Sequence record: PZ000613.1 | DNA: 64,000 nt | Source: a phage | Direction: 5' to 3' (one strand) | Shown: one piece after another, positions 43,455-44,273 of the stretch | How positions within the stretch are numbered: the stretch's first letter is position 1 | How the letters are laid out: every line of letters starts with the position of its first letter | Notes under the pieces: generated by a model | Told to the model about the DNA's origin: nothing | Seen by the model: only the letters and a program-made list of their open reading frames with translations | Databases searched by the model: none | Program-made: the position numbers and the translations under genes

Positions 43455-43661
43455 ATGAATAAAGAAGAGTTTCAAGAACTTAGATATTTAACTACCGATG
43501 CTCAGTTAAAAGCAATGGTATTTGGTCGGGCGTGTCATCGATTTGATACTTGTGATGAAGGTGATAAAGAAGTCTGTAAGCGTTATATGGATAAGAAGCA
43601 CCTTGAATGGGGTAAAGCTTCTAATGATCTTTATGACTACATGAAGGGTTTAGTAAAATGA
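43455..43661 (+). CDS. hypothetical protein (68 aa)
   Basis: ORF abutting the dcd stop. Confidence 0.4.
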   Translation: MNKEEFQELRYLTTDAQLKAMVFGRACHRFDTCDEGDKEVCKRYMDKKHLEWGKASNDLYDYMKGLVK

Positions 43662-43855
43662 AAAAGTGGATTGTTCGTGTACATGACAACAAGACAGGTG
43701 ACATAAACTCTGTAGATTTTGTTAATACTCGAGAGCACGCTCGTCGAATTAAGAAAACTTTTAAGGGGATAGGTCTGTCAGGTAAGATTACAATAGGAAA
43801 AGCTATTGTGAATAGCGAAGGTGCTTTTATGGCAAATAGTAAGGTTTATTACTAA
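43658..43855 (+). CDS. small tandem paralog 1 of 3 (65 aa)
   Basis: Shares W-x-VRV ... TR-x-x-AR-x-x-KK ... KVYY pattern with the next two ORFs. Confidence 0.5.
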   Translation: MKKWIVRVHDNKTGDINSVDFVNTREHARRIKKTFKGIGLSGKITIGKAIVNSEGAFMANSKVYY

Positions 43856-44064
43856 TGAGACCAATCACCATGAGACAGTTCTGGTTAGCAAAGATTAAGT
43901 GGGCATCAGGTGGTATGACTATGACTGCACTACCCACCCGTCAACAAGCTCGAGAGTTTAAAAAGTCTATGTTCAATGTGGACTTAACTAAGAGTATTAG
44001 CATACATAAGGCCAGAGAGTATTCCTCTGGTCGTGTTTATATCAGCGGAAAGGTACATTACTAA
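43855..44064 (+). CDS. small tandem paralog 2 of 3 (69 aa)
   Basis: Same pattern, ends GKVHY. Confidence 0.5.
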   Translation: MRPITMRQFWLAKIKWASGGMTMTALPTRQQAREFKKSMFNVDLTKSISIHKAREYSSGRVYISGKVHY

Positions 44065-44273
44065 TGAAAAAGATGTGGGCTGTTCGTGTTGTTTGGGAAG
44101 ATGGACACCATCTAGGTAAAGATAATATCAAATTATTTGACACCCGTAAAGATGCTCGTATTGCTAAGAAGAAGATGAAAACTTTAATTGGAACAGTTAA
44201 AAGTGCTGACATTCATCGCTGGTACGAAGACCCTAGCTCGGGTTCTTTTATGTCTAAAGTAATTTACTACTGA
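44064..44273 (+). CDS. small tandem paralog 3 of 3 (69 aa)
   Basis: Same pattern, ends KVIYY. Confidence 0.5.
   Translation: MKKMWAVRVVWEDGHHLGKDNIKLFDTRKDARIAKKKMKTLIGTVKSADIHRWYEDPSSGSFMSKVIYY

Follow-up and report, generated by a model that had tools for sequence, protein, structure and literature searches.

An old, lineage-specific family of small basic proteins (PHROG 4939) forms an array of overlapping genes in the replication module of Gordonclarkvirinae podophages

The A-B-C gene array and its surroundings

The DNA analyzed here, in the following called the window, is a stretch of 64,000 nucleotides (sequence record PZ000613.1) from a Kuravirus. The region is 90-96% identical to approximately 100 phiEco32-like coliphages of the Gordonclarkvirinae, with Kuravirus SU10 as the best match (95.7%). 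On the plus strand three small genes follow each other, encoding paralog A (43658-43855, 65 aa), paralog B (43855-44064 from the ATG at 43855, 69 aa) and paralog C (44064-44273, 69 aa). They are the orthologs of gp71, gp70 and gp69 in phiEco32 (phi32_71/70/69) and of gp071, gp070 and gp069 in SU10, all of which are annotated as “hypothetical protein”. At both internal junctions the last A of the TAA stop codon is also the first A of the next ATG (TAATG), and each of the three starts is preceded at a distance of 9-10 nt by a Shine-Dalgarno-like motif. Ahead of paralog A this is GAAGGG, 9 nt before the ATG, while the A/B junction AAGGTTTATTACTAATGA (43841-43858, plus strand) combines the overlap with an AAGG motif 10 nt before the ATG, and the B/C junction AAGGTACATTACTAATGA (44050-44067, plus strand) is of the same design with its own AAGG motif and TAATG overlap. 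The original prediction, made from the letters of the sequence, had described these three reading frames, and their coordinates, sizes, strand and stop/start overlaps were confirmed exactly.

The same prediction had taken the three genes to be paralogs sharing a common residue pattern, and both points hold. In pairwise BLASTP comparisons A and B are 36% identical over 44 aa (E 4e-7), B and C 28% (E 2e-6), and A and C 35% (E 8e-4). The alignment of the three proteins spans their whole length with W, TR, AR, KK and the final Y as invariant columns. Each of them independently matches over its full length one and the same profile, phrog_4939 (“unknown function”), with E-values of 2.2e-26, 2.8e-27 and 6.6e-27 for A, B and C, respectively, and the likeness is thus far beyond chance. 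The match of paralog B begins at residue 6, and its conserved core is the 64 aa starting from an internal ATG at 43870 (MRQFW...); many relatives have no more than this shorter protein. Paralogs A, B and C are therefore members of a catalogued, uncharacterized phage gene family, PHROG 4939.

The array sits inside the DNA-replication and nucleotide-metabolism module. The upstream order is a DNA polymerase exonuclease subunit, a CCA-adding-like nucleotidyltransferase, a dCTP deaminase and a 68-aa ORF, followed by A-B-C, and downstream come an intergenic region, a gene for a 109-aa protein, a Dps/ferritin-like “DNA binding protein”, thioredoxin, a 75-aa ORF (paralog D, see below) and ThyX. A primase/helicase gene is also found among the genes surrounding the four copies. 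The 68-aa ORF between the dCTP deaminase and paralog A (43455-43661, plus strand) matches phrog_2347 (unknown function); it is found in SU10, Paul, 172-1 and WFI101126 and is cleanly missing from phiEco32, where a 201-nt gap takes its place, showing that it is a presence/absence polymorphism. An Rfam scan of the whole window returned nothing in the A-C region; elsewhere in the window a single tRNA-Arg gene (anticodon TCT; 24420-24495, plus strand) was found by Rfam and ARAGORN in agreement.

A motif search located a match to the gp36-dependent promoter element of phiEco32, for which the consensus tAATGTAtA has been published (PMC8948821). The matching element AAATGTATA lies on the plus strand at 44298-44306, 25 nt after the stop codon of paralog C. 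By its position it is P68, a middle promoter of phiEco32 that has been used experimentally (PMC12276001), and the transcription unit carrying A, B and C is delimited by it on the 3' side. The same search gave no further plus-strand match to the element from about 21.7 kb to 44298, and A-C are therefore the last genes of the long unit carrying the replication genes. The intergenic DNA around AAATGTATA is 99-100% identical in all seven aligned relatives, despite the variable genes just upstream. As for the timing of expression, CDS 69-125 were classed as early in the SU10 paper, and in the Severinov-lab description of phiEco32 the genes for DNA polymerase and nucleotide metabolism count as middle genes.

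The original prediction had missed a fourth and divergent member of the family, paralog D (45930-46157, plus strand, 75 aa), which is located between thioredoxin and thyX. It was recovered in an hmmsearch with the family HMM (E 1.7e-7), with a widened profile (E 3e-18), and independently with phrog_4939 (E 4.1e-7). About half of the sampled relatives have a copy at the thioredoxin/thyX site, with positional equivalents in NJ01, KBNP1711, ECBP2, XT18, Paul, WFI101126, 172-1, EcoN5 and IME267. The D allele of the window is nearly unique. In a set of 5.8 billion proteins it has a single match at 99%, and within the phage collection its best identity is 36%. All four copies A-D are small and strongly basic (7.3-8.7 kDa, pI 9.9-10.6, net charge +7 to +9), as had been proposed for the first three.

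A second tandem pair, which had likewise been proposed from the letters, was also confirmed. The two genes (50504-50752 and 50754-51038, plus strand, 82 and 94 aa) encode proteins that align over 53 aa with 49% identity (E 7e-16) and that each match the profile phrog_6814. Across the Gordonclarkvirinae the two genes have stayed together in essentially all relatives; 99 records gave matches, and most of those listed show them at two separate places, or at one place assembled from two pieces. Like A-C these are tightly packed small uncharacterized ORFs, old paralogs kept as a set across the subfamily, whereas the two sequence families are unrelated. Just upstream of the pair a 163-aa ORF (49631-50122, plus strand), in which Pfam recognizes an HNH_3 endonuclease domain (E 3.4e-10), probably encodes a homing endonuclease, and the end of the pair is abutted by a 53-aa ORF (51039-51200, plus strand; phrog_17007), which extends the run of packed uncharacterized small genes.

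Extent, age and variability of the family

The phrog_4939 family is narrow and lineage-specific. When 5.8 billion proteins were searched with a profile, 92 clusters were recovered, and every cluster with a named source was from a Gordonclarkvirinae coliphage. An exhaustive HMMER search among 1.84 billion representatives returned only 21 at E <= 1e-3, which are 65-79 aa long and, with three exceptions, end in Tyr. In the same manner tblastn against 50,697 phage records gave matches in Gordonclarkvirinae only. Among 45 diverse members the W and both R residues never change, while conservation exceeds 90% for T, A, K and the terminal Y. A distant relative is a metagenomic contig with proteins only ~30-38% identical to those of the window, which carries three abutting family members at the same syntenic site and in the same gene order, that is dCTP deaminase, the triplet, a 110-aa gene, ferritin-like, thioredoxin and ThyX. 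Contigs of the 7-11-like type have a single weak homolog (E ~2e-4) directly after their dCTP deaminase, which led no further. A weaker candidate homolog is GAP52 gp065 (E 0.17), which has the same length (80 aa) as the BFVD Foldseek match from GAP52, so that the two may be the same protein.

The original prediction had further attributed the array to recent local duplications, and this the data refute. Tandem Repeats Finder detected no repeat array in A-B-C, and likeness at the DNA level is limited to patches of 18-24 nt. We built a family HMM, scanned the related loci with it, and sampled 18 related genomes for copy number. In the neighbor-joining tree A, B, C and D fall into separate clades, and the order A, B, C is the same in Kuravirus, Nieuwekanaalvirus and Suseptimavirus. 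With paralogs of roughly 30% identity in separate orthogroups, a fixed order in three genera, and a triplet in the distant contig, the duplications predate the subfamily. Concerted evolution or gene conversion among the copies was considered as well and is ruled out by the same tree, where paralogs never group by genome.

The number of copies per genome varies from 2 to 4 among the 18 genomes. Paralogs B and C are present in every array examined, while A is optional. The full A-B-C array is carried by most Kuravirus genomes and by Nieuwekanaalvirus EP335, and B-C only is found in four phages of the Suseptimavirus type (SU7, ECBP2, IME267 and PAS59) and in the Kuravirus phages 1-6af, EcoN5 and pEC-N1203, although the locus of the last one starts at the start of the record so that an A gene further upstream is possible there. 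Of the internal junctions that were inspected in the related loci, all have a TAATG or TGATG overlap except one in XT18, where the third gene starts 10 nt past the stop codon. Shine-Dalgarno-like AAGG motifs likewise accompany nearly all of these junctions, and the B/C junction AGCGGAAAGGTACATTACTAATG is identical or differs by 1-2 bases in the Kuravirus, Nieuwekanaalvirus and Suseptimavirus loci.

The pooled pN/pS ratios are 0.39, 0.33 and 0.39 for A, B and C, respectively, with dS values of up to ~1.4 (against EP335). Ratios of 0.33-0.39 at such high dS point to purifying selection on all three genes, which is more relaxed than on their neighbors. The neighboring genes show pN/pS of 0.09-0.22, with dCTP deaminase, ThyX and thioredoxin highly conserved, and the ratio for the array exceeds that of the neighboring enzyme genes roughly two- to fourfold. 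The exception is the CCA-adding-like nucleotidyltransferase (41511-42908, plus strand), whose pooled pN/pS is 0.41 and whose dN reaches ~0.7 against KBNP1711 and EP335; its change is unusually fast for an enzyme gene and resembles that of the small paralogs downstream. Its Pfam PolyA_pol match is just under the gathering score.

At the nucleotide level the flanks of the array in the window share 95-100% identity with those of six out of seven aligned relatives, the exception being the left flank of 1-6af, and within the array the identity to relatives falls to ~75% for A and to 70-82% for C, where the range extends up to 99%. The closest relative changes from gene to gene, being SU10 for A (96%) and 1-6af for C (99%), and the type of the B allele is independent of that of the C allele. 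The genes are mosaic, and the alleles of the array are shuffled between phages by recombination. Paralog C is the most variable copy and has alternative C-terminal cassettes. The variable parts of the proteins are the β1-β2 loop, the helix end with the loop following it, and the β3-β4 hairpin, for which the alternative cassettes include HRWYEDPSSGSFMSKVIYY, HRWIEFSEGTCMLSRNVYY and HQVCEDEKGLFLSKKVYY.

At the site of the array some phages carry a homing endonuclease or small acidic genes that are unrelated to the family. Both 1-6af (locus L014, 1760-2753) and EcoN5 (locus L022, 1277-2750) carry a divergent dCTP deaminase allele with a dN of 0.36 against that of the window, the nucleotide identity being 61% for 1-6af, and in both an extra ORF follows the dCTP deaminase, annotated as an endonuclease in EcoN5, where two small acidic ORFs are found in addition. 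Paralog A is missing from both phages, and the site is thus a hot spot for insertion and replacement. In pEC-N1203-2Af.1 (locus L020, 577-780) an unrelated acidic 67-aa ORF is joined to the end of paralog C by a TAATG overlap.

When the window is compared with phiEco32 and SU10, the three genes occupy the same site, between dCTP deaminase and gene 68/P68, and have the same order. There is no difference in kind, only in the combination of alleles, with A being SU10-like, C being 1-6af-like and D nearly unique. In the phiEco32 and SU10 literature covered here, the paralogy of gp69-71 goes unmentioned and no function is assigned to them.

Predicted fold and known protein families

AlphaFold2 predicts the same β-β-α-β-β arrangement for paralog B (pLDDT 91.4) and paralog C (pLDDT 84.2). 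In the model of C the helix comprises residues 28-39 and presents the conserved R28, R32 and K35/K36 at i, i+4 and i+7/8 spacing; A31, residue 34 and M38 are the hydrophobic positions and, judged from the same spacing, presumably buried.

Pfam gave no family for any of the copies in the window at E up to 1, and profile searches of Pfam, NCBIfam, the defence library PADLOC and PDB sequences found no relative of the A-D family. The same was the case for the known DNA- and RNA-binding families (HU/IHF, Cro/Ner, HTH, KH, S4 and others), for which Pfam and NCBIfam gave no profile match, and there was no convincing structural match for the β-β-α-β-β models. Scattered sub-threshold matches in Pfam and NCBIfam were to DUF5893 (3 of 44 members), Ribosomal_L13e (2 of 44) and S4 (1 of 44). 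Two further candidates were rejected. A yeast ribosome-assembly protein from the PDB-sequence profile search gave a 16-bit match over a 20-residue stretch only, and the acylphosphatase or ferredoxin-like fold scored 13.9 bits against a cut-off of 105, covering only profile positions 35-92; this fold is a complete βαββαβ unit, whereas the models of B and C have a single helix.

Possible functions of the A-D proteins

Collectively, the data establish an old lineage-specific family (PHROG 4939) of a strongly positive domain of ~65 aa, predicted to fold as β-β-α-β-β, which has expanded to an array of two or three overlapping genes plus an optional fourth copy. With respect to function, the reading we prefer, at a probability of roughly 0.4, is that the A-D proteins may be accessory factors with nucleic acid or some other polyanion as their binding partner. 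Binding of nucleic acid, which the original prediction had offered as a possibility, is plausible because the charge and the conserved Arg/Lys face of the helix fit it, and as described above the proteins match no known nucleic-acid-binding family or fold. In such a scheme the binding surface would be the invariant Thr-capped helix, on which the side chains of R-x3-R-x2-K(K) would line the exposed face, with the conserved Trp and the Tyr at the C-terminus in a helping role. Specificity would differ from paralog to paralog owing to the variable loops and the β3-β4 hairpin, and translational coupling through the overlapping stop and start codons would ensure that the members of the array are produced jointly.

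The main rival reading, which we hold to be somewhat less likely, is that the family instead serves in host takeover or anti-defence, each paralog neutralizing a host protein or sequestering a small nucleotide signal with loops that track the host targets. The array is a hot spot of divergence between nearly invariant flanks, where the best-matching phage differs from gene to gene and pN/pS exceeds that of the neighboring enzymes. The copy number varies, acidic genes or a homing endonuclease have been inserted at the site, and the family is confined to one phage group with the 21 cluster representatives mentioned above. The invariant residues (W, R, R, K and Y) are aromatic and basic. Such a mixture of residues is also known from nucleotide-binding pockets. 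In addition, the Gordonclarkvirinae have been reported to be highly resistant to the defence systems tested (PMC11990801). An anti-defence role fits the variability, the mosaicism, the changes in copy number and the narrow distribution better than polyanion binding does, yet it has no direct support, since nothing ties the family to any defence system and PADLOC gave no match. Paralog B is moreover well conserved and always present, and the array is found in the replication and nucleotide-metabolism module and not in the far-early region, where according to the phiEco32 literature the genes of unknown function are likely host-takeover genes. A bolder version, which we consider improbable, would make the family an unrecognized class of small anti-defence or host-takeover proteins, in which a pocket or ridge of Trp, Arg, Arg, Lys and Tyr captures a nucleotide signal or else a component of host immunity, be it protein or nucleic acid, the two to four recombining paralogs each cover a host variant, and the confidently predicted β-β-α-β-β domain, for which there is no solved structural relative, is a new functional fold.

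The strict positioning of the genes could suggest instead that the small proteins are subunits of the adjacent phage enzymes (dCTP deaminase, ThyX, nucleotidyltransferase or the replisome), acting as a hetero-oligomer. The A-C genes come directly after the dCTP deaminase and D lies between thioredoxin and thyX, the single weak homolog of the 7-11-like contigs has the corresponding location, the stop/start overlaps suggest coupled and roughly equal synthesis, and the nucleotidyltransferase evolves about as fast as the array. We nevertheless find this decidedly improbable, as dCTP deaminase, ThyX and thioredoxin are highly conserved in contrast to the variable small proteins, phages can do without A and D, and the allele types of B and C assort independently.

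A role as AbrB/MazE-like or Dmd-like regulators or antitoxins, in which the β-β-α-β-β unit would dimerize to bind DNA or a host toxin, is very improbable. The swapped-hairpin proteins of the AbrB/MazE/SpoVT type are ~50-70 aa long with a β-β-α-β-β order and basic residues on and around a single helix, as seen in the models of B and C. The models have the element order of that fold, while none of 44 members matched the AbrB/MazE/SpoVT Pfam profile at E up to 10. The T4 antitoxin Dmd (PDB 5hy3_B) is only 8% identical with a score at noise level, and nothing was found that points to a target of the RnlA/LsoA type for A-D.

Finally, the view that A-C arose by recent local duplication, or else are spurious ORFs lacking any selected function, which could draw on their shortness, on the lack of an annotated function and on a proteomics list for SU10 that does not include gp69-71 (a weak negative for Lys/Arg-rich proteins of 7 kDa), is contradicted by the lack of a DNA-level repeat between paralogs of ~30% identity, by orthologs in three genera and in the distant contig, by the pN/pS ratios at high dS, and by the confident fold predictions for B and C, and we give it hardly any credence.

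In one sense A-C are one of many uncharacterized small phage gene families, and our analysis gave no sign of an unusual mechanism. If the family binds nucleic acid or neutralizes a host factor, it would be a small and easily tested module for the Gordonclarkvirinae, a poorly studied group of common phages with a broad host range that serve in therapy-oriented work and, as has been reported, withstand many defence systems. The array itself clearly illustrates how an old expansion of a gene family is kept variable by the exchange of alleles between near-identical genomes.
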